NCBI GenBank assembly: GCA_963814975.1
Contig: CAWFFB010000010.1
Location: forward strand, 1-64,000
Direction: 5' to 3'
Source: an uncultured Acidobacteriota bacterium
GTDB lineage: Bacteria > Acidobacteriota > Vicinamibacteria > Vicinamibacterales > CAVVIG01
DNA: 64,000 nucleotides
In this document: positions 19,325 through 45,389 of the stretch, one piece after another
How positions within the stretch are numbered: the first letter of the stretch is position 1
Layout of the letters: the number at the start of each line of letters is the position of its first letter
The notes under the pieces: model-generated
What the model saw: the letters and a program-made list of their open reading frames with translations, nothing else
Databases searched by the model: none
Told to the model about the DNA's origin: nothing
Made by a program: the position numbers and the translations under genes

Positions 19325-19692
19325 TACCGGACTCGTCCGGTCCGGATGAAGGGGATACTACTTACAGGCATGTGAAACGGCTCTAGGGTACATCAACCCT
19401 CCGCGAACCAAAAGATTCGCTGGGCGTGGAGCCTCGAGGTGTCGAGCCGCGCCGGAGCACACGCACGTTGACGCGACGCTTGCCGAACGTTTTGGCCCGC
19501 CGGCAGTCGGGCACGAAGGGGTCGATTCGGCGGCCCTTTACAGCGGCGCCCCCATCAGTCACTGTGTGGGTTCCTGAGTACCGGCTGGGCTGGTACCGAC
19601 ATCGATAACCGACCCGAGCGGCAAGGCCGGATGATCGGCGCGATGCCCCCGATGGCTGGCATTCACTTTGCCGGGAATATTCGAGGCATTTC

Positions 19693-21690
19693 GTGTTCAA
19701 GCTGAGCAAACGTCGCGTCCTGGTCGCGACAGCCGCGATCGGCATCATCGTCGTCACCCTGACAGCATTGTGGATCCTGCCCCACGCCGGTCGTATCCAC
19801 AGGTTGCGGCAGGGGGTGGGCGACACCGTCTTCTACAGCGCCGACGGGCGGCCGTGGTTCAGCATGGACGAACGGCGCCAGGACGTGCCGCTCGCCGACA
19901 TCTCGCCCCACTTGCGGCGCGCCGTCATCGCCGTCGAAGACCGTCGGTTTTTTCTTCATCCCGGGATCGATCTGTTCGCGATCGCGAGGGCCGCGGTGCA
20001 CAACGCGCGTCACCTCACGGCGGTCGAGGGCGCCAGCACGATCACTCAACAACTTGCGCGGACCTTGTTCCTGTCGAATCGACGCACGATCACGCGCAAG
20101 CTCCAGGAAGCCGGGCTGGCCCTGATGCTCGAGGCGGAGCTGTCCAAGAATCAGATTCTCGAGCTGTACCTGAATCGGGTGTACTTCGGCGCCGGTCTGT
20201 ACGGAGCGGAGAAGATATCGCAGGCCCTGTTCGGCAAACGTGCACGCGATCTGACACTAGCCGAAGCGGCGCTCGTCACGGCCCTGATCCGTGCGCCGTC
20301 TGCGCTGTCCCCGTGGTCGAATCCCGAGGGTGCGATGCGGCGCAGTCGCGTGGTGCTGGCGACGATGCGGGAGCAGGGAGTGATCGACGCGGCGGCGGAA
20401 CGCGCAGCCGTCCAGACGAAACTGCCGTTTCTGCCGCGGCCCGCCTCGAAGGTCGAGGCGGAAGGATACGCGCGCGACTTCCTCAGACAGCAATTCGAGG
20501 AGTCGTTCGGCGGCGACAATCGCCCCGACTGGCAGGTGCACACGACCTTCGTCCGCGCGCTGCAGACGGTGGCCGAGCGCGCCGTCAGCGCAGGGCTGCG
20601 GCAGACCGCTCGTCCCGGGTTGCAGGCGGCGCTGGTGGCGCTGAACCCGCAGACCGGCGACGTGCTCGCTCTGGTCGGCGGCCGCGATTTCAAGGCGTCG
20701 CCCTTCAATCGCGCCACCCAGGGCCGCCGGCAGGCTGGCTCCGCGTTCAAGCCGTTCGTCTACGCCGCGGCGCTGGAGCATGGATGGTCGCCCGTCTCCG
20801 TGCTCTCGGGGTTGACTCACCTGCGCGTCGAAGGCCCCGACGAATGGGTGCCACAGAACGCATACGACGAGCGTCCCGATCGACTGACCTTGCGGGAAGC
20901 GCTGTTCGAGTCGAACAACCGCGCGGCGGTGGCGCTCCAGCAGCAAATTGGCAGCCGCCTGATTCTCGATCAGGCAGCGACCGCGGGGCTGCGCGATCTT
21001 CCCGACGTGCCGTCGCTTGCGCTGGGGGTGGGCGTGGTGTCGCCGCTCGAGCTGACCGCCGCGTATGCGGTGTTCCCGAATGGGGGCTTTCGGGTGGTGC
21101 CGCGGGCGGTCGTCCGCGTTGTCGACGATTCCGGAGCGATCCTGGACGCTCCCGCGGTTGACCGGACGCGGGTGTTGTCCGCGGCATCCGCCTTTCAGAT
21201 GGTCATGATGCTGCAGGACGTCCTCGACCGCGGTACGGCCACCGCGGCGCGGGCCCGCGGCATCCGCTTTCCAGCGGGCGGGAAAACCGGCACGACCGAC
21301 GACTTCAAGGACGCGTGGTTTGTCGGGTTCTCTTCGTCCATGGTGACCGGCGTGTGGGTCGGTTTCGATCACCCGGCGCCGATCGGCCCCGACGGCTACG
21401 GGGCCCGATACGCATTGCCAATCTGGAGCGACTTCATGCGCGACGCCGCCCGGGCGTGGGCGCCGGGGTCATTTGCCGTACCCGAGGACATCCGGGAATC
21501 GCGCCTCTGTCAGGTATCGCATCTGATCGCCACCGAGGGCTGCCCGGCGTACTCGGAGTATTTCAAGGAGAGCGACGACGCGCCGGCCGGGCCGTGCCTG
21601 ATCCATGGCGGGCCGCCGAGTGCGGCGCGCAAGGTGGAGCGATTTCTTGCCAACCTGGGCCGGCGTGTCGCCGGGCTGTTCAAACGGTGA
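19693..21690 (+). CDS. class A penicillin-binding protein (PBP1A-type transglycosylase/transpeptidase)
   Basis: 665-aa intact ORF. It has an N-terminal TM helix, the GT51 motifs (EDRRFFLHPGID, GASTITQQLAR, RKLQEAGLALMLEAELSKNQILELYLNRVYFG) and the transpeptidase motifs (SAFKPF, SSN-like SNN, KTGTT). Confidence 0.9.
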   Translation: MFKLSKRRVLVATAAIGIIVVTLTALWILPHAGRIHRLRQGVGDTVFYSADGRPWFSMDERRQDVPLADISPHLRRAVIAVEDRRFFLHPGIDLFAIARAAVHNARHLTAVEGASTITQQLARTLFLSNRRTITRKLQEAGLALMLEAELSKNQILELYLNRVYFGAGLYGAEKISQALFGKRARDLTLAEAALVTALIRAPSALSPWSNPEGAMRRSRVVLATMREQGVIDAAAERAAVQTKLPFLPRPASKVEAEGYARDFLRQQFEESFGGDNRPDWQVHTTFVRALQTVAERAVSAGLRQTARPGLQAALVALNPQTGDVLALVGGRDFKASPFNRATQGRRQAGSAFKPFVYAAALEHGWSPVSVLSGLTHLRVEGPDEWVPQNAYDERPDRLTLREALFESNNRAAVALQQQIGSRLILDQAATAGLRDLPDVPSLALGVGVVSPLELTAAYAVFPNGGFRVVPRAVVRVVDDSGAILDAPAVDRTRVLSAASAFQMVMMLQDVLDRGTATAARARGIRFPAGGKTGTTDDFKDAWFVGFSSSMVTGVWVGFDHPAPIGPDGYGARYALPIWSDFMRDAARAWAPGSFAVPEDIRESRLCQVSHLIATEGCPAYSEYFKESDDAPAGPCLIHGGPPSAARKVERFLANLGRRVAGLFKR

Positions 21691-32658: not shown

Positions 32659-33033
32659 AGAGGGGGCGCGTGATGGATTTCGGCCAGATCTGCTGGCGTT
32701 TTCCGCAGAGGGAGCTGGCATCGAACCTGCCAGTTCGACCGGAGGATGTCGTCAGATTGGGGCGCCACGGCGCGCTCTCGGCGCAGTTTTCTCATCGACG
32801 ATGCGGCACGTTTGCTGGGCGTGTCGCGGCGCACGGTGTATTACCGCATTCGGGAAGGGCGGCTTCTCACGATCCGGGCGCGGTGTGGATCGCAGCGGGT
32901 GCTTCTGTCGTCCATGGAGGCGCTGATGCGGGGGCGTCCAGGGGGGCGCCAAGAGGGCGGTCGGGAGAGTCGTCACGGCGATCATCGCGAGGTCGACGCT
33001 GGCATCGAGGGTGAAGCGGTGGATGGGAGCTGA
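32659..33033 (+). CDS. excisionase/MerR-type helix-turn-helix DNA-binding protein; the frame changes between N-terminus and HTH
   Basis: HTH segment LLGVSRRTVYYRIREGRLLTIRARCGSQRVLLSSMEAL (ORF 32746..33033), preceded in another frame by MDFGQICWRFPQRELASNLPVRPEDVVRL. It is paralogous to the gene at 40250..40507. Confidence 0.5.
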
Positions 33034-33096
33034 TGCTCTCGCGAGCGGCCGGGTGAGGGTGCGGGCCAAAATTCTGGAAGACAGAAGAGCTTAGAC

Positions 33097-35799
33097 TTAG
33101 AGACCGAGGCGCTGCCGCTTCAGGTACAGGCCCTTTCGGGAGATCCCCAGCGCTCTGGCTGCAGCGTCGACACGTCCGTGGTGCGTCCGCAGGGCGACCT
33201 TGATCATTTCACTTTCGATTCGCGCCAGCGTCGGCATCAACTTATTGGTCAGGGAAACCGCCAACTCCGGGCCGGCGGCTGCCAGGGGCGCGATCTTGCC
33301 GGTCTTTCGAATTTCCGGGGCGAGCGCGGCGGGCGTGAGCAGGGCGTCGGTTTCGGCCAGGGCGGTCATCCGTCGGAGCTCGTTCTGCAGCTGGCGCACA
33401 TTTCCCGGCCAGGGATGCAGGAGGAGGTATTCCATTGTTTCTTCGGCGACGCGGACGCGGCCTTTCGAGAATTCGGCGGCGGCTTGTGCGACGAAATGGT
33501 GGACGAGCGCGGGAATTTCATCGCGGCGCTCGCGGAGTGGCGGGATGGTGAGGCGGACGACGTTCAACCGGTAGAAGAGATCCTCGCGGAAGCGTCCTTC
33601 GTGGACGAGCTGTTCGACGTTGGAATTGGTGGCGGCGACGATGCGGACGTCGACGGTGAGGGGGGCGGGTTCGCCCAAGGGGGAGATCTCGCCGGATTCG
33701 AGGAACCGCAGGAGTTTCGGTTGGAGGTCGAGGCTCATTTCGCCGATTTCATCGAGGAACAGGGTGCCGTCTTTGGCGGCGCGAATGAGGCCGGGACTGT
33801 CGCGGTCGGCGCCGGTGAAGGCGCCGCGGCGATGTCCGAAGAGCTGGCTTTCGAGCAGTTCCCGTGGGATGGCGGTGCAGTTGAAGGGGACGAAGGGCTT
33901 GTGCGCGCGTGGGGAGTAGCGATGGATGGCGCGAGCCAGGATCTCTTTGCCGGTGCCGCTTTCGCCGGTGATGAGCACGCTTACATTTGTTCTAGCGACG
34001 CGCTGGGCGAGGGTCATTAGCTTGTGCATCTGGCCTGTAATGATCGCACCAGCAGAGTCGGTGGAAAGATCTTCTGCAGGCCAGAGCCTAATATGATCTT
34101 CTCGGTCTACACGAGCACGGTTAAGCTCACGGGTCGCTGATAACAATAAACAGATGGCGTTAATAGTTGCCGTCGACTCGATGTCAGAATTTGCTTCTAA
34201 CACCACCTCAACTCGGCTATCGCCTGACACTCCCACCTCAATGCGTCTCACGGCGGTGCTGCCGCTAAGTCCATCTTGCGCAATCACCTCTGTTGCACCT
34301 GAGGGTGCCGTTGCCAAAGCAATTGCATGTTTCGCGCAGCCGGAGTCGATCGCCAACCGAATGACTTCCCCTGCCATGAACTCCGGCTGCTGAACGTGCA
34401 CAACTAGAGCGGCTGCTCCCTGCAAAGCTACTTGCGCCGGCATGAAGCCTTCAAGTCCTGATTTCTGGGACACTCTCGGAGCGCCTGAGGCACTCGTCCG
34501 CTTGAGTTCTTGGAGAGCTGGTACGTTACGGAGAGATGTAAAGATTCGGCGCGCGCGATCCGCATGAACATCGGCCGCGTCGTAGTTCTGAGCGAGTGTG
34601 AGCGCAGACGCAAATAACCCCTCGTAGCGGCCATGGAAATCTGATGGAAGATCAGGTAGATCTGATACCAATCCACACAGGAGCTGCATTGCGTCGACAT
34701 CCCGGCCAATCTGCAGCAGTATTTCGGCCCGCGTTAAGGACGATATCGCTTTGAGAAAGTGGTCACCAGTATCGTGAGCGATATCCAATAATTGATCCAC
34801 CTGGCCGAGAGACTCCTGCCAGCGCGTTCGCAACATCAGGTACTTGATCCGAGTGAGGGACGCATGCCTAAAGACGTAGAGCCGCCGATCGTCCGGGTTA
34901 TGGATCGCTTCCTCTATGCGATCCAGGAGTTCTTCGGCCTGATCAAGGCGATTCTGGGCAAGCCTAATCGATGCTATAGCGTCGATAGCACCGTTTGCGT
35001 TGTCTCCGGAAGAAGGCAAAATCGCGATAGCTCGTTCAAAGTACCCAATTGCCTCGTCGAATTGCCCTCCAAGACAAAGCAGATTTCCATAATTGGCAAG
35101 GCACGCTCGGAGTGTCACTGCGACACCCGCCTGTTGGGCCAAGACAACAGCGCGTTGACCATGTGCGAAGCCAAAAGTGTAATCGGATAACATTAGGGCA
35201 ATTGCGACGTTTATGTTTTCAGCCCACGCCTCTAGCCATAGGTTTGATTCAGACGCCAGCAGGTTCACAGCAATTCCGGTATGGCTGCGAGCGCTAGTTG
35301 TTAGGCCGCGTTTTGCCTCAATCTCGGCCACAAAGACGTGAACCGCGGCGAGAACACTCGGGTCACCGAGTTTGATTGAATTCGCTCGCAGTTCGGCCAA
35401 TATTGGAGCCGCGGCATCGATATCGGAGCGATTTGCGAACATCATCCACAGACGGAGTTGAGACCAACAGAGGCGCTCAAGATTGTCTGCGCGCTTCGCG
35501 AGGAGAAGCGAGCGTTGGACATGTTCAATTGCGCCGGCCGTGTTGCCTTCATCCCACTCTATAAGGCCAAGTGTGTACTCGCAGATGCTGCGGTCCACGT
35601 CGCTCAGTTCGTGCGTTTTCAGCAGCTTTGCGGACAGCTGCCGACTCTCAACGTACCGTCCGACTCGTTCAAGAAGTGCAACTCTCTGAACGTCAATTGC
35701 TGGTGGACTTTTTTGGTTCGGCGTCGGCCCCCCAAGTGAAGTCAGGGCCTCAATAAATCGGCCGTTTCGTACGAATTTCTTAACAGTTGCTAAATCCAT
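33097..35799 (-). CDS. sigma-54-dependent transcriptional activator (bEBP) with about 550-aa N-terminal TPR-like sensory region
   Basis: 900-aa intact ORF. The AAA+ sigma54-interaction domain is present (VLITGESGTGKEILARAIH, GAFTGA, ESQLFGH) with a C-terminal Fis-type HTH (GRVDAAARALGISRKGLYLKRQRL). The N-terminal half is all-helical and repeat-like. Confidence 0.9.
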   Translation of the reverse strand: MDLATVKKFVRNGRFIEALTSLGGPTPNQKSPPAIDVQRVALLERVGRYVESRQLSAKLLKTHELSDVDRSICEYTLGLIEWDEGNTAGAIEHVQRSLLLAKRADNLERLCWSQLRLWMMFANRSDIDAAAPILAELRANSIKLGDPSVLAAVHVFVAEIEAKRGLTTSARSHTGIAVNLLASESNLWLEAWAENINVAIALMLSDYTFGFAHGQRAVVLAQQAGVAVTLRACLANYGNLLCLGGQFDEAIGYFERAIAILPSSGDNANGAIDAIASIRLAQNRLDQAEELLDRIEEAIHNPDDRRLYVFRHASLTRIKYLMLRTRWQESLGQVDQLLDIAHDTGDHFLKAISSLTRAEILLQIGRDVDAMQLLCGLVSDLPDLPSDFHGRYEGLFASALTLAQNYDAADVHADRARRIFTSLRNVPALQELKRTSASGAPRVSQKSGLEGFMPAQVALQGAAALVVHVQQPEFMAGEVIRLAIDSGCAKHAIALATAPSGATEVIAQDGLSGSTAVRRIEVGVSGDSRVEVVLEANSDIESTATINAICLLLSATRELNRARVDREDHIRLWPAEDLSTDSAGAIITGQMHKLMTLAQRVARTNVSVLITGESGTGKEILARAIHRYSPRAHKPFVPFNCTAIPRELLESQLFGHRRGAFTGADRDSPGLIRAAKDGTLFLDEIGEMSLDLQPKLLRFLESGEISPLGEPAPLTVDVRIVAATNSNVEQLVHEGRFREDLFYRLNVVRLTIPPLRERRDEIPALVHHFVAQAAAEFSKGRVRVAEETMEYLLLHPWPGNVRQLQNELRRMTALAETDALLTPAALAPEIRKTGKIAPLAAAGPELAVSLTNKLMPTLARIESEMIKVALRTHHGRVDAAARALGISRKGLYLKRQRLGL

Positions 35800-35971
35800 C
35801 GGGTGGACCCTTTTAAGTGCGGTGCCCTGACGACGTATTGTGCCCGATGGATCCTTAGACTGAAACTCATGGTGATGAGGTTACAGCCTTTTCGTGCAAC
35901 GTAGTGCTGGCAACTCCAGTCGGGACAATATCAAGCGGAAGATTGCATGTGCGGCGAGGCAGAGAGAATAT

Positions 35972-38365
35972 CTAATGAATCTGAATTGAGGAGTGATCTT
36001 GCCGGGACGCAATCTGGCGTTGGGCCACCAGCATTAGCCCCCGAAACGAAGAGCCATCGCGGGGAGCCGAAAGACAGGTGATGATCGCTTGGATCGCTAG
36101 ATCTGAACCTGACTTTAACTGTAACGCGTGCCCTAATATGCTTTCTTGAATTCGCTCAGCAATAATCTTAGCGGCCGAGAGACTAGTCTGGTGCAGGAGG
36201 GCGACAAACTCCGCGCTATCGTACCGGAACAAGATGTCCGAAACCCTTAGCTCAGTCCTAGTCTGTCGAACGACGTGCCGTAACGCTTCGTCTCCAGACT
36301 GTCGGCCGTGCTGTGCGTTAATGTCCTTCAGGCCTGGCATGTGGATGAATAGCAGCGTCAAATCTGAGACGACCGTTACATCTTCAGTGCCGGTAGACTG
36401 CAAGAAGAGTTGTTCAAGCTGATGAAGATTTGGTAGACCTGTGGTGGAATCCAGGCGTGTCGTGTTCTCGATCTCAGTCGCACACTTTAGTGTATGTGAA
36501 ACGTGACGCGCAACCACCTCAATGACCCTTCGGTGATTTTCGTTGAATCCATCGATGGTTTCCGAATACAGCGTTAACACACCAATCAATTGAGCACCTG
36601 ATGTCAGTGGAGTACTCAAGCAACTTCGAAGTCTTGGACTTATGGTTCTAGCTACATCCCCTAGATCGAGTGTAGGATCGGAGTTAACGATCGTCTTTTG
36701 ATTCGCTCCTACCCAACCACTCAATCGTCGCCCCATAGGAATGCAAAGTCCGTTGATGACCGAGCTGGCGTCGCCGGTGGTGTGCTTTGCTTCAAGTTCA
36801 TCCGTCGCAGGATTAAGTATAAACAGTACAGATTGGGCGAAGGGAATCAGCCGCCGGAGGTGCTTCGTGATCAAATCACCGGTCTCGCTGATGCTTCCTT
36901 GTCCAGCCAGGGCATGAGCCAGCTCGTAAAGCGTATGCATTTCGGCCGAGCTGGCAGCAATGTCGTCAAGTCTCTGAAGATCAGTGCTGATTGTCGGGTC
37001 TTGGATCGAGCCGGCAATTTCGTTGAGTGCTTGGCGCTGGGCTCTGGCTGGCGCCGGCACCGGCGCTATGTCGGCATGAACTCTGACAAACGTATCAACA
37101 ATCAAAGGATCGTACATTGAACCTCGGCGCTCGATTAGAATTCGGAGCGCTTCGTCGGTTGACAAGCGAGGACGGTATGGGCGGTCTGAAGTCAGAGCGT
37201 CAAAGCAATCAACTACCGATAGAATTCTGGCACCAATGGGAATGTCAGTACTCTTAAGGCCGGCTGGGTATCCACTTCCATCCCAGCTTTCATGATGATG
37301 CCTGACTATCGGCACAACTGGGTACGGAAAATCAATTGCGGAAAGTATGTCCGCTCCAACACTAGCGTGCAGTTTCATTTTCTCGAATTCGGCAGGTGAT
37401 AGCCGGCCGGGCTTGTTCAAAATGTATTCCGGAACAGCTAGTTTGCCCATGTCGTGAAGGAGCGCGGCCGCCTCGATCGCTTTGATCAGCTTCTCGTCGA
37501 TTACGCCGACGCGTTTGGCCAAACCAACTGCGTACGCCTGTACCCGGCGAATGTGCCCGTGGGTGATCTGATCTTTGGCGTCAATCGCCATTGCAAGGGT
37601 CTCAATCGTTGATAAGTACAGTCGGTTCAAATCGCTCAGATGCTTGTTGCTATCCTCAACGCGCCCCATTGCTGTTCGAAAGGTGAGATACGAAACTAGC
37701 AACAACGGGCCTATTATGGCGAGAATGCTGACGTCGAGGTCGCGAGAAAATGTAACGATCAACGCAGCAACAGAGGCGCTGCTAAAGTATGTAACCGAAA
37801 GCCAAATGAATTTGTCCCACCAAATAGTGAGCGGCGGCTCTTTCGTTTCGAGTCCGACGACTACTGCGACGAGCCAACTGTTCAGCAAGAAATACAGGGT
37901 GGTAAAGCCCGCAAGCGGAAGAAAGAGGGCTGAGAGGGGTGCCGGACGGATCGAGTATGGCTCGATATCTGAGAAGAAAAAGAAGACAGTCGCGGATAGC
38001 CAAATTGCGATTGTTGGGGCGGCCAGGTTGAACAAGAGCCTGTGAGGCGGCCGACCGGCCGGACTCATCCAGAACAGCACGGTGAGTGCTTCGAGAAGGA
38101 CGGTGATCGTGCCGGCGGCTGCGCCGAAGAGAAGAACCGCTAGGAAGACGAACGCTTCGGAGACTGAAATTCTAGCGTTGATCGACGCGATCTTGACGCT
38201 AAAGGAACCGGTAAGTAACGTCAACGCTGCGATAACAATCCACTGAGGAGCAAGTGGGTTTTGGTAGAGCCTGAATGTTGAATACGCTACTGCTGCGGCG
38301 CCGGCTAGCACCACACCGACGACGTAGGCTCTGGCGGGGCCTTTTAGTTGAGCGAATCCGGGCAT
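35972..38365 (-). CDS. membrane-anchored HD-GYP phosphodiesterase with GAF and degenerate GGDEF-like domains
   Basis: 797-aa intact ORF with about 8 N-terminal TM helices. The HD-GYP core reads HGHIRRVQAYAVGLA...LHDMGKLAVP...HHESWDGSGYP. A GAF-like region and a C-terminal GGDEF-like region lacking a canonical GG(D/E)EF follow (HMPGLKDINAQHGRQSGDEALR). Confidence 0.85.
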   Translation of the reverse strand: MPGFAQLKGPARAYVVGVVLAGAAAVAYSTFRLYQNPLAPQWIVIAALTLLTGSFSVKIASINARISVSEAFVFLAVLLFGAAAGTITVLLEALTVLFWMSPAGRPPHRLLFNLAAPTIAIWLSATVFFFFSDIEPYSIRPAPLSALFLPLAGFTTLYFLLNSWLVAVVVGLETKEPPLTIWWDKFIWLSVTYFSSASVAALIVTFSRDLDVSILAIIGPLLLVSYLTFRTAMGRVEDSNKHLSDLNRLYLSTIETLAMAIDAKDQITHGHIRRVQAYAVGLAKRVGVIDEKLIKAIEAAALLHDMGKLAVPEYILNKPGRLSPAEFEKMKLHASVGADILSAIDFPYPVVPIVRHHHESWDGSGYPAGLKSTDIPIGARILSVVDCFDALTSDRPYRPRLSTDEALRILIERRGSMYDPLIVDTFVRVHADIAPVPAPARAQRQALNEIAGSIQDPTISTDLQRLDDIAASSAEMHTLYELAHALAGQGSISETGDLITKHLRRLIPFAQSVLFILNPATDELEAKHTTGDASSVINGLCIPMGRRLSGWVGANQKTIVNSDPTLDLGDVARTISPRLRSCLSTPLTSGAQLIGVLTLYSETIDGFNENHRRVIEVVARHVSHTLKCATEIENTTRLDSTTGLPNLHQLEQLFLQSTGTEDVTVVSDLTLLFIHMPGLKDINAQHGRQSGDEALRHVVRQTRTELRVSDILFRYDSAEFVALLHQTSLSAAKIIAERIQESILGHALQLKSGSDLAIQAIITCLSAPRDGSSFRGLMLVAQRQIASRQDHSSIQIH

Positions 38366-38431
38366 TGCGGGTGGCCGCTCTCACGGCGGCCTACCCGTTA
38401 TCGGTTCAATCTTCCCAGAGGATTAGTTGTC

Positions 38432-40234
38432 TCATTTTGAACGCTCCTTGACTTGGCGTAATTTGCTAAAGGATTGGGGCACCGACTGTGATTCAATCCA
38501 ACTGACCTGTGCCCCAAAAGATGGAATCGTTGGCATTGGTGCCCCAAAAGATGGAATCGTTCCGGTACCCCAGAAGATGGAATCGTTGCTGGTAGTGCCC
38601 CAAAAGATGGAATCGTTGCCATTGGTGCCCCAAAAGATGGAATCGTTACCAGTGGTGCCCCAGAAGATGGAATCGTTGCTGGTGGTGCCCCAAAAGATGG
38701 AGTCGTTTGTATTGGTGCCCCAAAAGATTGAATCATTGCTACTCGTGCCCCAGAAGATTGATTGGGGTTTGGCAGTGCCCCAGAAAATGCTGGTGCTGGT
38801 TACGGTTCCAGGGCGCCGTTCCGCATGGGCAGGAGTGGTGAAGGCCATTCCAGAAGCAAGGACTTGCTGACCAGCTAAGACTGTTTCTGGAAGCCGTGCT
38901 TTTCGAATATCCGTATCAAATTCAGCCGCGGCGAGCACATTCAGGCTTCCTGCGCCGCCCGCCATTAGCCCCTCGTCGGGCATGAACGAGCTGGTCATCT
39001 GCAGCACGGCCTTTGTTTCGCGAGGCGATAGCTTGCGCTGCTGATCCAGCAGCAGTGCGACCGCGCCGCTGACCACAGCGGTCGCCATGCTGGTTCCCGA
39101 CAGCTGGACGTAGGCGTTGGCGCCGGCGCCCGCCACGTGCCGATGGGAATACGTCGTCGCCAGATACGAGCCCTGCGCTTCGGCCGACACGATCCGGCTC
39201 CCCGGCGCTACCATATCCGGCTTGAGGGCCAGGTCGAACCGGGTCGGACCGCGCGAGCTGTACGCCGCCACCGTGTCGTCGGACCGGTACGGTGTCCCAT
39301 GCGTGTCGAGGGCGCCAATGGTGATCGCGTCCGGATGGTTGCCCGGCGACGTGATCCCGCCGAAAATGCGCTTCCCCTCAACGGTCTGTCCGTTGTTGCC
39401 CGCCGCCACGACGACAACCATGCCCGCGGCGATCGCCCGCTCGACAGCCTCGCACACCGGGTCGTCCGCGTACGGCTGCACCACCGGCGTTCCCAGCGAC
39501 AGGTTGATGACCTTGATGTTGTACGCCTTGCGATGCTCAATCGCCCAATCGATCGCCTCGACGACGTCGCTCGCATAGCCGGACCCGTCTGCGCCGAGCA
39601 CCCGCAGGTTCACGATGAAGGCGCCAGGGGCGATGCCGCGGTAATCGTCGGTGTCCGCCGTACGTCCCCGCTGCCCCGCGATAGTTGCCGCCACATGCGT
39701 TCCGTGCCCGTACACGTCCTGGCCGGTTCCCCCCGTGAAGTCGACGGTGGTGAGGACGCGCTTCTGCAGCGCCGCGTGACCGAAATCGACGCCCGAATCG
39801 ATGACGGCGACCGCGACGCCGGCCCCCGTCAGCATTGGGAGGCCCTCGCTGCCCGCCCACACCTGATCCGCCCCGATGCTTTCGGCGGTGACCTCCGACG
39901 CACGAAACCGGGCGTCGGCCGACAGATGCTCGACGGCCTGGTCGTCGCTGAGCGCCGCCAGCTGACCGGCGGTCAGTCTGAGCACCGCCCCGCTCTTGAG
40001 GTAGCGCGCCACGCGCAGGTTGTAGCGCGCCGCCAGCGCGTCCACCTCCGTCCGCGTGCCGTGCACGATGACGGCGATCGTCTGCGACCCGGCCGTCAGG
40101 TGATCCTCGAGGTCGGCACTCAACCTCGCACGACGGGCGGCAAACGCCGGCGAGATGCCCACTGACGCGACGAGCAGGGCGGCCAAGACGACGCGGGACA
40201 AGCGGGCGACGACGGTCATCGGGATTTGGTCCAC
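38432..40234 (-). CDS. secreted S8 subtilisin-family serine protease with C-terminal 10x nonapeptide tandem repeat
   Basis: 600-aa intact ORF with a signal peptide and the D/H/S catalytic motifs (VIDSGVD, HGTHVAATIAG, GTSMATAVVSG). The C-terminus is SIFWGTAKPQ SIFWGTSSND SIFWGTNTND SIFWGTTSND SIFWGTTGND SIFWGTNGND SIFWGTTSND SIFWGTGT... Confidence 0.85.
   Translation of the reverse strand: MDQIPMTVVARLSRVVLAALLVASVGISPAFAARRARLSADLEDHLTAGSQTIAVIVHGTRTEVDALAARYNLRVARYLKSGAVLRLTAGQLAALSDDQAVEHLSADARFRASEVTAESIGADQVWAGSEGLPMLTGAGVAVAVIDSGVDFGHAALQKRVLTTVDFTGGTGQDVYGHGTHVAATIAGQRGRTADTDDYRGIAPGAFIVNLRVLGADGSGYASDVVEAIDWAIEHRKAYNIKVINLSLGTPVVQPYADDPVCEAVERAIAAGMVVVVAAGNNGQTVEGKRIFGGITSPGNHPDAITIGALDTHGTPYRSDDTVAAYSSRGPTRFDLALKPDMVAPGSRIVSAEAQGSYLATTYSHRHVAGAGANAYVQLSGTSMATAVVSGAVALLLDQQRKLSPRETKAVLQMTSSFMPDEGLMAGGAGSLNVLAAAEFDTDIRKARLPETVLAGQQVLASGMAFTTPAHAERRPGTVTSTSIFWGTAKPQSIFWGTSSNDSIFWGTNTNDSIFWGTTSNDSIFWGTTGNDSIFWGTNGNDSIFWGTTSNDSIFWGTGTIPSFGAPMPTIPSFGAQVSWIESQSVPQSFSKLRQVKERSK
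38497..38770. repeat. about 10 direct tandem copies of a 27-bp unit (consensus on + strand roughly gtgccccaaaagatggaatcgttgcyr), in-frame within the subtilisin gene
   Basis: Directly visible at 38497-38770: the 'ccccaaaagatggaatcgtt' core recurs every 27 nt with point variants (ccccagaagatggaatcgtt, ccccaaaagattgaatcatt). It encodes the NDSIFWGTx repeat on the minus strand. Confidence 0.85.
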
Positions 40235-40249
40235 GGGAATGTCTCCGAT

Positions 40250-40507
40250 TCAATCAGTTACAGGCTTCGAGGGGTGGCTGCCTCGATCACTGGGCTTGTT
40301 CAGCGACTCGAGCAGAACGCGCTGGGATCCGCCAGGGGTACGAATCGTCTGGAGACGACCCTCGCGGATGCGGTTGTAAATCGTCCGGCGTGACACCCCG
40401 AGGACCACCGCCGCGTGGTCCAACGAAACGCTTCGGCCGATACGGGCTTCAGAGCTGCCTTCGAATGTGCGGTCAATCAATGCCATCAGCCGTTGCTCCT
40501 GGGTCAC
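40250..40507 (-). CDS. excisionase/MerR-type helix-turn-helix DNA-binding protein (paralog of 32659..33033)
   Basis: 85-aa ORF: VLGVSRRTIYNRIREGRLQTIRTPGGSQRVLLESL. It matches the upstream paralog residue for residue across the HTH. Confidence 0.6.
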   Translation of the reverse strand: MTQEQRLMALIDRTFEGSSEARIGRSVSLDHAAVVLGVSRRTIYNRIREGRLQTIRTPGGSQRVLLESLNKPSDRGSHPSKPVTD

Positions 40508-40774
40508 GACATCTGTAATCGCACGTGCGTGGCCAGCCCAGCTGGGAGCGCCAGCTCGGGTGGCTCGATCGATTTAAACGTTTGATGGGTATGGAGTTAC
40601 TGTTCTAAGATACGCGTGGGGTCTGAAGCCCGGTTCCCGGGCGATCAGCCAGTAAGCTAGCTAGCGAGACCGTAAGAACGGCCGGGCTGGAACAAGTTTG
40701 CATGCAAAATCGTCCGAAATGCTCGAGCTTGGTACAATTGTGATCGGTCAGATTGTTGGCTCTTGAGCTAGCTT

Positions 40775-42508
40775 TTGACCAGACACCAACGCCACACCCT
40801 CCCGTTCCGGATCGCCATCCTGGTTGCCGCCGTGGCGACGGGGTGTCGAGCCCCCGCCGATCCTCCGCCGGCGACCGCCCCGCAGGGGATCCCCCGCGGC
40901 GGCGACCTTCGTGTCGCGGTGCGCACCGAACCGCAGTCCTTCAACTGGTACACGCGCCACGATGGATCCACGTACATCGTCACGGCCCTCACGCAGGCCC
41001 GCCTGTTCCAGGTGAATCGCGCGACGCAGGAAGTCGAGCCGTGGCTCGCCGAGGGCTCGACCCGGTCCGCCGATGGCCTGGAGTACACGATCAAGCTGCG
41101 GCCGAACATCGTCTTCGCCGACGGCCATCCGTTTACCGCGGACGACGTCGTGTTTTCCTTCGCGGCGGCGTACAACGAACGCGCCGGGAGCATCCTGGCC
41201 GACGCGATGAGAATCGCGGGCAAACCGCTGCAGGTGTCCGCCGTGGATCCCCTCACCGTCGTTGTCACCTTTCCGGTGGCGTTTGCGCCCGGGCTCGTGC
41301 TCCTCGACAATCTGCCGATTCTGCCGAAGCACAAGCTTCAGGCCGCGCTCGACGCCGGGACGTTCGGCAGCGCGTGGGGACTGGGCACGCCGGTCGCCGA
41401 GATCGCCGGCCTCGGGCCGTTCGTGCTGTCCGAGTACGCGCCGGGCCAGCGGACAGTCTTTACGCGCAACCCGAACTACTTCCGGAAGGACCCCGCCGGC
41501 GCGTCCCTCCCATACCTCGATCGTGTCATCGTCGAGGTCGTGCCTGACCAGAACGCCCAGTTGTTGCAGCTCGATGCCGGCAGCCTCGACATGACGGGAT
41601 CCGAGGTGCGGCCGGAAGACTACGCGCCGCTGAAGCGCGCGGCCGAGGCCGGGCGCGTCCAGTTGCTCGATTTAGGGATGGCGTCCGACCCGGATAGCTT
41701 CTGGATCAACCTCCGGCCTGGCGCATTTGCCAAGGATCCCCGTGCCGGCTGGATGCAGCGCGACGAACTGCGGCAGGCGATCTCGCTGGCGGTCGATCGC
41801 CAGGCGTTTGCAGATACGGTGTACCTGGGCGCCGGCGCCCCGGCCTTCGGCCCGGTGACGCCCGCCAACAAGAAATGGTATTCAGCCGACCTGCCGCAAA
41901 CGCCGCACGATCCGGCCCGTGCGAAGACGTTGCTGGCCTCAATCGGTTTGACGGACCGTAACGGCGACGGCGTGCTCGACGATGCGCACAACCAACCGGC
42001 GCGCTTTGCGCTGCTGACTCAGAAAGGGCAGACGGCCCTCGAGCGTGGCGCTGCCGTGATCCGTGACGAGCTGAAGAAGGTCGGGCTTCTCGTCGACGTC
42101 GTCCCCCTCGAGGGCAACGCACTGGTTCAGCGGTTCCTGTCAGGTGAACCGTACGACGCCATCTATTTTCAGTTCGGGATGACCAACCCGGACCCCGCGC
42201 TGAGTCTGGATTTCTGGTTGAGCTCCGGCGACTCGCGCGTCTGGAACCTCGCGCAGAAGGTGCCGGCGACCGACTGGGAGCGCCAGATCGACGAGTTGAT
42301 GGCGAAGCAGATTACCGCGACCGGCGAGGTGGAGCGCAAGCGGCTGTTCGATCAGGTGCAGCGCGTGTTCGCGGCGCATCTGCCGGTCGTGCATTTCGTC
42401 GCGCCCAAGATCTTCGTGGCGGCTTCGAGCCGCACCACGAACCTCACGCCCGCGATTACGCGCCCGCAGTTCCTGTGGGCGGCGGAGACGATCGCCGTGA
42501 AGCCGTAG
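40775..42508 (+). CDS. ABC transporter substrate-binding protein, family 5 (oligopeptide/dipeptide/nickel type)
   Basis: 577-aa intact ORF. It has a lipoprotein-like signal (ILVAAVATGCRA) and is long and collinear with SBP_bac_5 proteins. Confidence 0.85.
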   Translation: MTRHQRHTLPFRIAILVAAVATGCRAPADPPPATAPQGIPRGGDLRVAVRTEPQSFNWYTRHDGSTYIVTALTQARLFQVNRATQEVEPWLAEGSTRSADGLEYTIKLRPNIVFADGHPFTADDVVFSFAAAYNERAGSILADAMRIAGKPLQVSAVDPLTVVVTFPVAFAPGLVLLDNLPILPKHKLQAALDAGTFGSAWGLGTPVAEIAGLGPFVLSEYAPGQRTVFTRNPNYFRKDPAGASLPYLDRVIVEVVPDQNAQLLQLDAGSLDMTGSEVRPEDYAPLKRAAEAGRVQLLDLGMASDPDSFWINLRPGAFAKDPRAGWMQRDELRQAISLAVDRQAFADTVYLGAGAPAFGPVTPANKKWYSADLPQTPHDPARAKTLLASIGLTDRNGDGVLDDAHNQPARFALLTQKGQTALERGAAVIRDELKKVGLLVDVVPLEGNALVQRFLSGEPYDAIYFQFGMTNPDPALSLDFWLSSGDSRVWNLAQKVPATDWERQIDELMAKQITATGEVERKRLFDQVQRVFAAHLPVVHFVAPKIFVAASSRTTNLTPAITRPQFLWAAETIAVKP

Positions 42509-42516
42509 CCGGGCGC

Positions 42517-43470
42517 ATGCTGTCGTTCCTGCTGCGCCGCCTCCTGTTTGCCGCGTGCCTGGTGTTCGCCGTGTCGTCCGCGTCGATGGTGGTCACGCGC
42601 CTGGCCCCGGGCGATTACGCGACCGGCGCGCTGGGGCTCGGCGCCAGCCAGGAAGCGCGCGCTCAAATGCGCGCGCGCTTCGGCCTCGACCGGCCGCTCG
42701 GCGCGCAGTACTGGGACTGGCTGCGACGCGCCGTCCGCCTCGACTTCGGACGCTCGCTCGCCTACGACCGTCCGGTCATCGATCTGATTCCTGAACGCGC
42801 CGCCAATACGGCCCTCCTTGCGCTGAGCGCGCTGTTCCTGGCGACGATCGTCGGCCTGCCGCTCGGCATCCTGACAGGCACCCACCGCGGAGGGGCGCTG
42901 CCGGGTACCGTACGCGCGGTGTCGGTCCTGCTGCTGTCGATGCCACCGCTCCTCACATCGCTCCTCCTGGTCTTTCTCGCGGCGCGGACCGGATGGTTCC
43001 CGATTGGCGGCATGCGGTCGATCGACACCGGGAGCGGCGGCGCTGCCGCGCTCGACTTGCTGTGGCACATGGTGGTGCCGGTTCTCGCGCTGGCCATGCC
43101 GCTGGCCGCGATGTTCGAGCGTCTACAGGCTCAGGCGATATCCGAGGTCGTCGGTCAGCGCTACGTGCTGGCCACGCTGGCGCGTGGCGTTCCGCGAGCG
43201 CGTGTGATCTGGCGGGACGCGCTCAAAGCCGCGCTCCGTCCGGCGGCCTCAATCTATGGCATCGTCGTCGGCACGCTGCTCAGCGGCTCGTTCGCTGTCG
43301 AGATCATCATGTCCTGGCCGGGTCTGGGGCGCCTGATGCTCGACGCGCTGCGGGCGCGCGACGTGTACCTCGTCGCCGGGTGCGCGGCGGCCGGATCGGC
43401 GTTTCTGGCGGCCGGCACGCTGCTGTCGGACGCCGCGCTGGCGGCTGTCGATCCGCGATCGACGGAATGA
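42517..43470 (+). CDS. ABC transporter permease (DppB/OppB-like)
   Basis: MLSFLLRRLLFAACLVF... with about 6 TM helices and the EAA-like loop. Intact. Confidence 0.8.
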   Translation: MLSFLLRRLLFAACLVFAVSSASMVVTRLAPGDYATGALGLGASQEARAQMRARFGLDRPLGAQYWDWLRRAVRLDFGRSLAYDRPVIDLIPERAANTALLALSALFLATIVGLPLGILTGTHRGGALPGTVRAVSVLLLSMPPLLTSLLLVFLAARTGWFPIGGMRSIDTGSGGAAALDLLWHMVVPVLALAMPLAAMFERLQAQAISEVVGQRYVLATLARGVPRARVIWRDALKAALRPAASIYGIVVGTLLSGSFAVEIIMSWPGLGRLMLDALRARDVYLVAGCAAAGSAFLAAGTLLSDAALAAVDPRSTE

Positions 43471-43480
43471 CGCGAACGAG

Positions 43481-44479
43481 ATGACCCGCGGGCTCGGCGC
43501 ATTCGTCGTGATCCTGGCGGCTGTTGCCGCGCTCACAGCGCCTCTTGTCGCCCCGCATCCGATCGATCAGCAGTTCGGAGGGCTGTTGAATGCGCCGCCG
43601 ACGCTCGTCCGCGTCCGCGACGATGCGGGACGCTGGCGTGCGCCGTTCATCTACCCTTGGAAGCGCGTCAGCCAGCTCGAGCAGCGATACGAAGAGGATC
43701 GACTGAGATCGGTCCCACTTGTCTGGTTCGCCGGGGGACGGTTGATGCGCTCGGCCGACGAAGCCGTCGCGCCTCTCCTGATCCTCGGTGCTGACAGTTA
43801 TGGCCGCGATGTATTCAGCCGCCTGTTGTACGGTGCGCGGATTTCGCTGGGTCTGTCGCTGCTGGCGGCCATCGGCGCCACGATCGTCGGCGGGCTCATC
43901 GGCGGCGTTGCCGGTTACATCGGCGGCCCGGTAGACGACCTGCTGATGCGGGCGTCGGATTTCGTGCTGGTCCTGCCGGCGATGTACGTCGCGCTGGCGC
44001 TGCGTTCGATCATGCCGCTGGTACTCGCAGCAGGCACCGTCTTTCTGCTGCTGGCCGGAATTTTCGCGGTCGTCGGCGCACCCTTCATCACACGCGGCGT
44101 TCGCGCCATCGTCCGCGCCGAGCGCCGGCTCGACTATGCGGCCGCCGCGGCGTCGCTCGGCGCCGGCCACATGCGTCTCCTGGGCCGGCATCTGCTGCCG
44201 GCGGCCCGCGGCTTCGTCGTCGTGCAATTGACGATGCTGATTCCCGCGTTCATCGTGTCCGAGGCGACGCTCTCCTACGTCGGCCTGGGCTTTCCGGATC
44301 CGGTCGCGAGCTGGGGGACGATGCTGCAGGACGCATCCAGCATCCGGGCCTTTGCGGATTTTCCCTGGCTGCTCAGTCCCGCTGCTGCAATGTTCCTCGT
44401 CGTGCTCGGCCTGAATCTCATGCTGCAGGACCGGCCCGAGCGTCTCGGTGAAGGCCACGGCGTTCCGCGACAGTTATGA
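43481..44479 (+). CDS. ABC transporter permease (DppC/OppC-like)
   Basis: 332-aa intact ORF with TM helices and the binding-protein-dependent transport signature. Confidence 0.8.
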   Translation: MTRGLGAFVVILAAVAALTAPLVAPHPIDQQFGGLLNAPPTLVRVRDDAGRWRAPFIYPWKRVSQLEQRYEEDRLRSVPLVWFAGGRLMRSADEAVAPLLILGADSYGRDVFSRLLYGARISLGLSLLAAIGATIVGGLIGGVAGYIGGPVDDLLMRASDFVLVLPAMYVALALRSIMPLVLAAGTVFLLLAGIFAVVGAPFITRGVRAIVRAERRLDYAAAAASLGAGHMRLLGRHLLPAARGFVVVQLTMLIPAFIVSEATLSYVGLGFPDPVASWGTMLQDASSIRAFADFPWLLSPAAAMFLVVLGLNLMLQDRPERLGEGHGVPRQL

Positions 44480-44498
44480 CCTCGTCTACAATGAGCGT

Positions 44499-45389
44499 AT
44501 GCCTGTGACCGGCGTCCTGGCCCCGGTTCCGACTCCGTTCGATGAGTACGACCGTGTGGACCTCGTGCGGCTGCGAGCCGCCTTCGCGCGCTGGGTTGCC
44601 AGTCCGCTGAGTGGCTTCGTCGTCCTCGGTTCCAACGGCGAGGCGGCGCTGATGGACGAGGAGGAAAGCGACCGGGTCGTTGGAACGGCCCGCGAACTCG
44701 TCCCGTCCGGACGCGCGTTCATCGTCGGCACCGGGCGCGAGTCCACGCAGGCGACTGTTCGGGCCACCAGGCGCGCCGCGGCGCTCGGGGCCGACGCGGT
44801 GCTGGTGCGCACGCCCGGGTTTTTCAAGTCCCACATGACGACCGATGTCTTCGTTCGTCATTACACGGAGGTCGCCGACGCCTCGCCCGTCCCAGTCTTC
44901 CTGTACAACTTCACCGCGGTGACTGGTGTGAACCTGTTGCCAGCCGCCGTGTCGCGGCTGGCGACTCACCCCAACATCGTCGGGATGAAGGAGTCGGGCG
45001 GCGACGTCGCGCAGATTGCCGATCTGGTTGAGCAGACCCCCGCGTCTTTTGCGGTCCTCGCCGGTTCGAGCGCCACCTTCTACGCGGCGCTGTGCGTGGG
45101 CGCCGCTGGCGGCATTCTCGCGCTTGCCGGCCTGGTGCCTGGGCCATGCGTACGACTGTTCGAGCTGACCAGAGAGGGACGCCACGAGGAAGCGCGTTCG
45201 CTCCAGCGGCAGCTTCTACCTCTCGGCCGTCTCCTCGGCCAGGTGTATGGTGTTGCAGGCTTGAAGGCGGCCATGCAGCTGACCGGATGCGACGTGGGGG
45301 CACCTCGGCCGCCACTCGCTCCTGTGCCGGACGCTGGTCTGGTTGCACTGCGAGAGGCGCTCGCGAAGTTCCAGGAAGTGGCGGTGTGA
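44499..45389 (+). CDS. dihydrodipicolinate synthase / N-acetylneuraminate lyase family (class I aldolase) protein
   Basis: MPVTGVLAPVPTPFDEYDRVDLVRLRAAFARWV...GFVVLGSNGEAALMDEEE...PVFLYNFTAVTGVNL...GMKESGGD. The DHDPS-family motifs and the Schiff-base Lys context are present. Intact. Confidence 0.8.
   Translation: MPVTGVLAPVPTPFDEYDRVDLVRLRAAFARWVASPLSGFVVLGSNGEAALMDEEESDRVVGTARELVPSGRAFIVGTGRESTQATVRATRRAAALGADAVLVRTPGFFKSHMTTDVFVRHYTEVADASPVPVFLYNFTAVTGVNLLPAAVSRLATHPNIVGMKESGGDVAQIADLVEQTPASFAVLAGSSATFYAALCVGAAGGILALAGLVPGPCVRLFELTREGRHEEARSLQRQLLPLGRLLGQVYGVAGLKAAMQLTGCDVGAPRPPLAPVPDAGLVALREALAKFQEVAV

Follow-up and report, generated by a model that had tools for sequence, protein, structure and literature searches.

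A hypervariable, compositionally distinct input cassette within a conserved operon of Vicinamibacterales

Is a sharply bounded low-GC block in a high-GC genome a piece of imported DNA, or can it be a resident part of that genome with a composition of its own? The question is raised by a locus in the 64,000-nucleotide stretch of contig CAWFFB010000010.1 analyzed here (the window), which comes from an uncultured Acidobacteriota bacterium of the order Vicinamibacterales. Three large minus-strand genes at this locus encode an exported S8 subtilase, a membrane-bound HD-GYP protein, and a sigma-54 activator of the bacterial enhancer-binding protein (bEBP) type, and a small helix-turn-helix (HTH) gene stands at either end. 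The original prediction, made from this stretch alone, held the block to be a horizontally acquired module with excisionase-type genes at its borders. Acidobacteria belong to the most abundant bacteria of soil, and to our knowledge almost nothing is known about their signaling or kin recognition. Comparison with relatives shows that the block is a vertically inherited operon of Vicinamibacterales and not an imported island: it is an order-wide core operon in which a conserved promoter and output enclose a hypervariable, compositionally distinct input cassette.

When one genome per species was scanned, 452 loci were found, the best 80 of which come almost all from metagenome-assembled genomes (MAGs) of Vicinamibacterales or Vicinamibacteria; relatives' loci are labeled L001, L002, L003, and so on, and synteny counts are restricted to loci with enough flanking DNA. 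Full-length homologues of the HD-GYP protein number in the thousands, at 56–91% identity. The S8 gene lies upstream and the bEBP gene downstream of the HD-GYP gene in 51 of 54 testable Vicinamibacterales loci, and the divergent gene for an SBP_bac_5 (SBP5) substrate-binding protein is found in 62 of the 67 loci with enough upstream DNA. The common order is SBP_bac_5 ← (HTH_17) → S8 → HD-GYP → bEBP → ← HTH ← NHL, Nramp → Usp. It was seen on the contigs of homologues with 91%, 86%, and 69% HD-GYP identity, with a GC trough at matching places, and order, neighbors (SBP_bac_5, NHL, Nramp, and Usp), and trough are kept in relatives at 45–91% HD-GYP identity. The neighboring genes, first taken to be unrelated to the block, are conserved syntenic partners, so that the locus is not an insertion site in that sense, and the expectation that close relatives would have empty sites was contradicted. 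The coupling of the three large genes in one functional module, in turn, is borne out by a gene order conserved across the order and by the conserved sigma-54 promoter that heads it.

Hallmarks of a mobile element were looked for and not seen: the 64-kb window holds no tRNA genes, no att-like direct repeats bracket the block, and no integrase is encoded among the genes of the locus and its immediate neighbors, which are the genes that were scanned with Pfam. The block itself contains no meaningful sigma-70 promoters or terminators and matches no Rfam family.

The base composition drops as first described, though not within the limits given then (33.1–38.9 kb). Between 34,000 and 39,030, GC is 0.534 versus 0.655 in the rest of the window (z = −4.9 for 1-kb windows), and all nine 1-kb windows inside this trough (0.520–0.548) lie below all 113 outside it (0.609–0.735); sliding GC goes down from 0.62–0.70 to 0.49–0.56. 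The stretch at 33.1–34.0 kb, which encodes the AAA+ and HTH_8 parts of the bEBP, has a normal composition (GC at third codon positions, GC3, of 0.68–0.86), as do both HTH genes. In 50-codon steps, GC3 of the bEBP gene is about 0.38–0.68 over codons 1–600 and 0.68–0.86 over codons 601–900, and GC3 of the S8 gene is 0.82–0.96 over codons 1–400 and 0.46–0.70 over codons 401–600, so the block is non-uniform in codon composition within single genes. The trough begins at about 34,000 (bEBP codon ~600, at the start of the AAA+ domain) and ends at about 39,030 (S8 codon ~400–415, at the end of the catalytic domain). Both borders are thus intragenic and lie 0.9–1.2 kb inside the two HTH genes, neither of which the trough reaches.

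Foreign DNA that had not yet adapted to its host would be out of compositional equilibrium, and this was not found. When substitutions were polarized among close relatives, third-position counts of strong-to-weak and weak-to-strong changes (S>W/W>S) in the trough were 103/93, 137/123, and 74/74, and the predicted equilibrium GC3* of 0.51–0.56 is close to the observed 0.55–0.57; the flanks stand at 0.87–0.89. The trough has an approximately 2.3 times higher GC-to-AT rate per site, with little difference in the AT-to-GC rate. The balance of changes and the closeness of GC3* to the observed GC3 indicate that the composition of the trough is locally stable and not that of unameliorated foreign DNA. 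Low GC3 is most likely due to weakened GC-biased gene conversion or selection in deeply diverged alleles that recombine little. Among relatives, median GC3 is 0.60 for the HD-GYP gene and 0.61 for the N-terminal, sensory part of the bEBP (bEBP_N) versus 0.89 for the S8 catalytic domain (S8cat), 0.87 for the C-terminal part of the bEBP (bEBP_C), and 0.86 for SBP5. The HD-GYP genes of L029, L030, L083, and L060 have high GC3 (0.78–0.91), hence the trough is not universal; in L029 and L030, the HD-GYP match ends at residue ~629, which implies that there is no GGDEF domain there.

What the trough marks is a cassette of alleles (34,000–39,030), recognizable from GC, GC3 steps, the identity profile, and the trough in relatives. 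It holds the S8 C-terminal tail, the whole gene for a MASE9–HD-GYP–GAF–GGDEF protein in which GGDEF is degenerate, and the 585 codons of the TPR (tetratricopeptide repeat)/sensory part of the bEBP. Nucleotide identity between the window and L003 is 86–91% through SBP5 and the S8 catalytic domain, drops at about 39,050 to 60–64%, is 74–79% across the HD-GYP domain and 48–57% through the GGDEF and TPR region, and is back to 80–86% at about 34,050. Four further pairs behave alike, with flanks that are 82–94% identical and cassettes that are 45–60% identical, so that the locus is a mosaic, which in five independent pairs breaks sharply at the GC borders. The same holds at the protein level: L043 and L054 share 86% identity in SBP5, 93% in S8cat, 55% in HD-GYP, and 93% in bEBP_C (bEBP_N not available), and L002 and L003 share 94% in S8cat, 71% in HD-GYP, and 37% in bEBP_N (SBP5 and bEBP_C not available). 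HD-GYP identity has a floor near 0.45–0.55 regardless of the identity of the flanks.

The window, L001, L002, L084, and L085 carry one cassette type (84–93% nucleotide identity), and L003 carries another with equally similar flanks; SBP5 is 89% identical between the window and L003 despite their differing cassettes. Between types, synonymous differences are saturated (pS 0.74–0.84) while the synonymous divergence (dS) of S8cat is 0.35; nonsynonymous divergence (dN) is 0.05 in the HD-GYP core and 0.27–0.62 in the transmembrane (TM), GAF–GGDEF, and TPR parts, and bEBP_N is the most variable part, with 21–40% identity. Within a type, dN/dS is 0.03–0.17, which indicates that all parts of the cassette are functional. 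Among pairs with similar S8cat, the core of the tail repeat is shared in eight of 10 pairs with an HD-GYP identity of at least 0.71 and in none of 10 below that value. A search for cassettes common to distant flanks, which would be a sign of recent horizontal cassette exchange, gave mild outliers only, and deep allelic divergence is therefore favored over frequent recent swapping.

Three MAG bins (L056/L074, L069/L078, and L029/L053) each contain two cassette versions on separate contigs, with HD-GYP proteins that are 50–64% identical and bEBP_N that is 42% identical, and many relatives' contigs end in or beside the operon. Both observations fit strain polymorphism that breaks assemblies, or paralogous loci. 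The closest long contigs are L084 and L085 (S8 95% and 87% identical), in which SBP5 is in three pieces and Nramp in two. These apparent pseudogenes were set aside as long-read indel errors, since gene calls on both contigs are fragmented throughout.

Pfam searches confirmed the domains first proposed for all three large proteins. The predicted membrane sensor phosphodiesterase (797 aa; 35,972–38,365, minus strand), identified from Pfam, motifs, and homologues, consists of a MASE9-like TM domain (37,661–38,365), an HD-GYP domain (37,106–37,600; HD_5, 1.1e-40), a GAF domain (36,488–36,895), and a degenerate GGDEF domain (36,020–36,454), all on the minus strand. The MASE9 match is weak in the window protein (16.8 bits versus a Pfam cut-off of 24.3), and relatives have precomputed PF20972 matches. 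Catalytic residues of the HD-GYP domain are intact, including HHExxDGxGYP; HGH, HDMGK, and HHESWDGSGYP are invariant in 25 homologues, and the closest solved structures are active phosphodiesterases of cyclic di-GMP (c-di-GMP) or cyclic GMP-AMP (cGAMP) (4mcw, 5z7c, and 4r8z). At the GGDEF active site, the window reads DSAEF and most relatives GS[DH]EF, so the GG[DE]EF signature of an active diguanylate cyclase is not found in the window protein; RxxD (RVSD) is kept. Ligand binding inside the membrane has been proposed for MASE9 (Galperin and Chou, bioRxiv 10.1101/2021.11.05.467447). The same work describes MASE9–HD-GYP–GAF–GGDEF proteins that share the architecture of the window protein and have intact HD-GYP motifs; the operon context, polymorphism, and function of such proteins are not treated there.

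The bEBP (900 aa; 33,097–35,799, minus strand; TPR, Sigma54_activat, AAA_lid_14, and HTH_8 in Pfam) begins with a TPR superhelix (residues 1–438; 34,486–35,799) followed by a small α/β domain (residues 454–570; 34,090–34,440), both delimited on an AlphaFold2 (AF2) model of residues 1–590 with a predicted local distance difference test score (pLDDT) of 86.8. The AAA+ domain (33,550–34,032; PF00158, 5.2e-68) and HTH_8 (33,109–33,231) follow on the same strand, and Walker A (GESGTGKE), GAFTGA, and Walker B (DEIGE) are all present in the translation. Foldseek matches were generic TPR ligand or peptide binders and include MalT domain III (TM-score TMt 0.70), LGN, and Rap–CSF (4gyo; TMt 0.43). The α/β domain has no sequence relative in the Protein Data Bank.

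The exported S8 subtilase is encoded by a 600-aa open reading frame (ORF; 38,432–40,234, minus strand), with a Peptidase_S8 match (PF00082, 1.4e-49) over residues 137–415 that corresponds to the catalytic domain at 38,990–39,826 of that strand. Its triad is intact, D146, H177, and S382 being invariant in 30 orthologues together with the oxyanion residue N280. A hydrophobic helix (residues 7–25) and an α/β domain (approximately residues 36–112; AF2 pLDDT 85–94) are read as a signal peptide and a pro-domain, and Sec export is predicted.

The tail of this protease consists of ten tandem 30-nt units coding for (S/N)DSIFWGTxx (38,493–38,794, minus strand). Tandem Repeats Finder called the array at 38,509–38,758, with a period of 30 and 8.5 copies. 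One unit, at about 38,553–38,571, has 26 nt instead of 30, and this 4-nt deletion in repeat 9 shifts the frame: the end of the 600-aa ORF (IPSFGAP...) stems from it, and the other frame ends in ...SIFWGTGQLD, like relatives, with its stop at 38,493–38,495. Frameshifted tails among relatives are confined to long-read MAGs, so the frameshift in the window may be an assembly error. Arrays of this kind seem hard to assemble in general, as the S8 tail ORF of L072 (9230–10,730) reads through into the HD-GYP gene to give a "tail" of 500 aa and a run of N interrupts the array of L047. S8 orthologues end in tandem repeats with the core D/N-S/T-I/L/V-I/V/F-W-G/T/S/A and a Trp-to-Trp spacing of 6–12 aa; the units are nearly perfect within a genome and differ between genomes, and the period also varies within proteins. 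The repeat was originally considered unique, which it is not, being a family-wide Trp repeat that is also present on paralogous S8 proteases. In L046, L057, and L070, such a paralogue of about 700 aa with DNIVWGT repeats is encoded on the minus strand approximately 5 kb upstream of the operon (~1654–3793 in L046), and the operon's own S8 in L046 is without repeats. AF2 shows no fold for the window tail (pLDDT 24–35), in a model that is poor overall (mean pLDDT 56).

Regulation of the operon could be read from the DNA upstream. The first cistron of the window operon is HTH2 (40,250–40,507, minus strand), an HTH_17 protein (excisionase/MerR-like) with 29.7 bits for HTH_17 and 30.4 for TIGR01764, the cut-offs being 27 and 28.8 bits. 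Its likely start is the ATG at 40,486 (78 aa), which has AGGAG 9 nt before it, and not the GTG at 40,507; counterparts in relatives are called at 75–78 aa, and HTH2 is confined to a sub-clade of loci. HTH1 (32,746–33,033, plus strand), convergent with the bEBP gene, scores 30.3 bits for HTH_17 and, below the cut-off, 25.2 for TIGR01764. The two are paralogous, as predicted, with 66% identity over 50 aa, and the window has no further copy.

A scan of the window for the canonical sigma-54 element, TGGCAC-N5-TTGCW, gave fewer matches than expected by chance and none in the locus, and the operon promoter emerged only through comparison across loci. This sigma-54-type element, TGGCCACGCACGTGCG (40,520–40,535, minus strand), has GG-N10-GC spacing just upstream of HTH2, with the −24 GG at 40,534–40,533 and the −12 GC at 40,522–40,521. 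At the homologous place, a strict TGG[CT]A[CT]N6TGC occurs in 49 of 60 loci versus 0.016 expected per interval, in the form TGGCAC-N5-(G/C)TGC and just upstream of the first cistron, which is HTH2 where present and S8 elsewhere. The original prediction had proposed a search for sigma-54 elements upstream of the protease and HD-GYP genes. One is thus upheld ahead of the protease operon, in conserved −24/−12 form, whereas the regions preceding the HD-GYP gene and the bEBP gene showed no conserved sigma-54 motif. Together with an AAA+ activator that has GAFTGA, Walker motifs, and HTH_8, the −24/−12 element (which reads TGGCCA at −24 in the window) gives the operon the makeup of a sigma-54 operon.

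Further sites were seen in 19 aligned upstream regions, in the order of two GGCCA-N6-TGGCC inverted repeats, a palindrome TTTGCGTGCAAA, CAA-N4-TTA, −24/−12, TTATAGAT, and a GGAGG ribosome site. In the window, all on the minus strand, the distal inverted repeat (consensus GGCCAAAAAAcTGGCC, window GCCAACAATCTGACC) lies at 40,746–40,760, 15–30 nt from the divergent SBP5 start, and the palindrome reads TTTGCATGCAAA (40,697–40,708) and, as a candidate operator, may be bound by the bEBP or the HTH_17 proteins. The proximal inverted repeat (consensus GGCCAgaTTcTTGGCC, window AGCTAGCTTACTGGCT; 40,647–40,662) is a candidate enhancer or upstream activating sequence, presumably bound by the bEBP. Between the upstream repeats and the promoter stands CATCAAACGTTTAA (40,574–40,587), whose CAA-N4-TTA core is conserved in the 19 aligned loci and which, judging from the consensus WATCAANNNNTTR, is a putative site for integration host factor (IHF). 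Aligned in this way, the sites have the classical arrangement of an enhancer-dependent promoter.

A second sigma-54-type promoter, TGGCATCGAACCTGCC (32,716–32,731, plus strand), stands 14 nt before the HTH1 start. Of the 18 loci in which the bEBP gene is followed by a convergent HTH gene, 11 conserve this element. With sigma-54 promoters before both of them, the HTH genes are targets of the module and not the borders of an element, HTH2 being the first cistron of the operon; their fold is the one found in excisionases, and neither att repeats nor, among the genes scanned, an integrase accompanies it.

Outside the cassette, divergent genes of a peptide-type ABC importer (40,775–44,479, plus strand), identified by Pfam and synteny, encode the lipoprotein SBP_bac_5 (40,775–42,508) and two permeases (42,475–43,470 and 43,481–44,479); a gene of the dihydrodipicolinate synthase family follows on the same strand, so that the run extends over 40,775–45,389. 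The importer is a neighbor and a possible partner of the operon.

We propose that the operon is an autoregulated sigma-54 circuit for signaling or recognition with strain-specific input modules, similar to agr or comQXP, and we assign a probability of about 0.5 to this reading, in which the function is what we infer from the domains and their arrangement. The conserved outer parts are the promoter and enhancer, the S8 catalytic domain, and the AAA+/HTH_8 output domain. The bEBP would bind the upstream inverted repeats and, with IHF-type bending, activate the sigma-54 promoter of its own operon; it would also activate the second HTH_17 gene, which would give positive feedback. The exported protease may carry a short hydrophobic peptide, specific to the allele, in many copies, or may free these by cleavage beside the invariant Trp. 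The intramembrane MASE9 domain could read this signal and thereby set HD-GYP hydrolysis of c-di-GMP (or cGAMP), and after uptake via the adjacent peptide ABC importer, the peptide may also be sensed by the TPR domain, which would gate the AAA+ ATPase. Signal and both sensors would be inherited as one block, so that lineages would sort into groups of differing specificity, like the pherotypes of agr or comQXP.

The fullest form of this scheme is a peptide self-recognition or quorum-sensing system whose signal would be 8–24 tandem Trp-containing hexa- to dodecapeptides, fused to the C terminus of their own processing subtilase, read by the MASE9–HD-GYP protein and/or, after Opp-type uptake, by the TPR-gated activator, and diversified into ancient, co-inherited "dialect" alleles in which suppressed recombination drove the block to a separate GC equilibrium. 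We regard this specific form as speculative and on balance rather unlikely.

The closest parallels are polymorphic peptide-signaling loci. The hypervariable region of Staphylococcus aureus agr covers the C-terminal part of AgrB, AgrD, and the sensor half of AgrC. In comQXPA of Bacillus, the variable block comprises comQ, comX, and the N-terminal part of comP. The receptor ComP has a variable N-terminal domain and a conserved cytoplasmic part (PMC4008528). As in these systems, close relatives are highly polymorphic in a central block of putative signal and sensor and alike in the output parts, the variable block begins and ends within genes, and the circuit would activate its own operon. Unlike them, the locus lacks a histidine kinase, a response regulator, and a small gene for a pro-peptide; a sigma-54 bEBP, an HD-GYP enzyme, and a repeat-tailed protease are found instead, in Gram-negative Acidobacteria, with a variable block of distinct and stable base composition and a signaling role deduced from sequence.

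Systems of the RRNPP type in Firmicutes (Rap–Phr, NprR–NprX, PlcR–PapR, and PrgX) likewise combine a TPR domain (a putative sensor in the window bEBP) on a transcription regulator with a subtilisin-type protease outside the cell and an Opp-type importer with SBP_bac_5, which here adjoins the operon, and Rap–CSF is among the Foldseek matches of the TPR domain. Here, however, the TPR match is generic, with MalT domain III best by TM-score, the output is an AAA+ sigma-54 activator and not an HTH or phosphatase, and no small secreted pro-peptide ORF was found in the locus, the only peptide-like repeats being those fused to S8. Relays from cell signals to c-di-GMP, such as RpfC/RpfG of Xanthomonas, and c-di-GMP-responsive bEBPs, such as FleQ and VpsR, also use an HD-GYP phosphodiesterase as transducer and a sigma-54-type AAA+ regulator in the same circuit. 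RpfG differs in being a REC–HD-GYP protein driven by a kinase, and FleQ-type bEBPs are likened to the window bEBP by domain type. All parts of the locus come from known families, and polymorphic signaling cassettes are known elsewhere. In keeping with the original prediction, the literature that was searched revealed no described system with this makeup; the same search yielded no report of its Vicinamibacterales-wide conservation, its intragenic borders, or a stable GC trough. Literature searches on the NIVWG repeat, on TPR-bEBPs, on Vicinamibacter and sigma-54, and on peptide quorum sensing in Acidobacteria found nothing relevant.

Several observations weigh against a recognition circuit, and in particular against a peptide signal. 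Paralogous S8 proteases outside the operon carry like Trp repeats (DNIVWGT, with acidic spacers), which suggests a generic structural or anchoring role for them. The 10-residue unit of the window resembles RTX (repeats-in-toxin) nonapeptides, top phmmer library matches include RTX proteins, and the tail of one relative matches a Pfam family of grass antifreeze β-rolls. Co-segregation of tail and sensor is expected from physical linkage alone, and HD-GYP identity between alleles does not fall into clean discrete classes. The importer does not co-vary with the cassette, and no ABC ATPase genes are present in the locus. The −24 element of the window is imperfect (TGGCCA, a weaker match), and its upstream repeats are degenerate. 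Beyond the conserved operon, the hypervariable cassette, and the sigma-54 promoter, everything in the scheme is what we infer, and so is the cause assigned to low GC3, be it reduced recombination, gene conversion, or selection.

The main rival is that the operon is a proteolytic foraging regulon, which is a possible if unlikely account. In that case, S8 would be a nutritional exoprotease with a structural, RTX- or β-roll-like tail, possibly Ca2+-binding, for anchoring or secretion; generic oligopeptides sensed via the ABC importer and the TPR-bEBP would induce the protease, and the HD-GYP protein would link it to lifestyle control by c-di-GMP. Variability would come from diversifying selection on exposed parts by phages, predators, or competitors, or from weak constraint. 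The paralogues with similar repeats and the conserved, non-co-varying importer speak for this, as does the annotation of S8 orthologues as "serine protease AprX" by Joint Genome Institute annotators. So does the likeness of the tail to RTX and antifreeze β-rolls: as in serralysins, a C-terminal tandem short repeat ends a secreted protease, and the window unit G-T-x-x-N-D-S-I-F-W parallels GGxGxDxUx. Yet the period of 6–12 residues, between and within proteins, is not the nonapeptide one and is awkward for a single conserved solenoid fold, the Trp is invariant, and HemolysinCabind (PF00353) gave no significant match to the tail (E = 4.1; 7.9 bits versus a cut-off of 23). The protease has a predicted N-terminal Sec signal and not type I secretion, and AF2 predicts no roll, which is weak evidence given the quality of the model. 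The most variable part of the locus is the cytoplasmic TPR domain, which is beyond direct selection by external enemies, and purifying selection within types argues against simple relaxation.

A polymorphic antiphage or toxin-type defense module, with a protease effector and a nucleotide-second-messenger enzyme, is improbable. Hypervariable cassettes are common in defense loci, HD-GYP enzymes can degrade cGAMP (5z7c), and there is weak similarity of S8 to IetS/IteS, of the HTH to mad1, and of the AAA+ domain to RtcR-type models. However, PADLOC returned generic domain matches only for the components of the locus, far below family level (IteS 67 bits versus a cut-off of 900), the protease is predicted to be exported by Sec, and the locus is a fixed, order-wide syntenic core and not a mobile defense island.

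The reading from which this work started, in which excisionase-type genes delimit a genomic island of recent acquisition, is very improbable indeed. Like islands with such genes, the locus has atypical GC and small genes nearby that match HTH_17 and the "excisionase family" TIGR01764. Unlike them, it lacks att repeats, tRNA genes, and, among the genes scanned, an integrase, and both of its HTH genes are preceded by sigma-54 promoters, as members of the regulon. Order, neighbors, and trough are conserved in 51 of 54 related loci, some with as little as 45% HD-GYP identity, and this counts heavily against an island, as do the intragenic borders and the equilibrium composition.

Least probable of all is a chimeric contig that joins DNA of a lower-GC organism into a high-GC genome. 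In its favor, the window and several relatives are probably metagenome assemblies, contigs often break at the cassette, three bins hold two versions, and the window array is frameshifted. Against it, both junctions are in frame within intact genes of continuous domain architecture, >60 independent assemblies from short or long reads show the same mosaic, and the close relatives L001, L002, L084, and L085 carry the cassette type of the window.

The locus offers a concrete, order-wide circuit in which variable and constant parts show which modules confer specificity and which the output. Within a high-GC genome, a sharp trough of low GC can mark a long-lived polymorphic cassette and not a transfer, which calls for caution in composition-based island finding and may provide a way to detect such cassettes elsewhere. 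The locus also lends itself to a test of whether bacterial GC3 declines where recombination is reduced. Were the peptide proposal true, Gram-negative soil bacteria would have a pherotype system made of parts that known ones do not use.

Elsewhere in the window, TGGCATTCACTTTGCC (19,657–19,672, plus strand) is a good −24/−12 match 20 nt before the gene at 19,693–21,690, which encodes a class-A penicillin-binding protein (Transgly and Transpeptidase) and is a possible further sigma-54 target. At about 26,177 on the minus strand, a weak GG-N10-GC motif stands 61 nt before a 192-aa ORF starting VPETLSPADAAKVLGVTEADV, the product of which looks like another small HTH protein.

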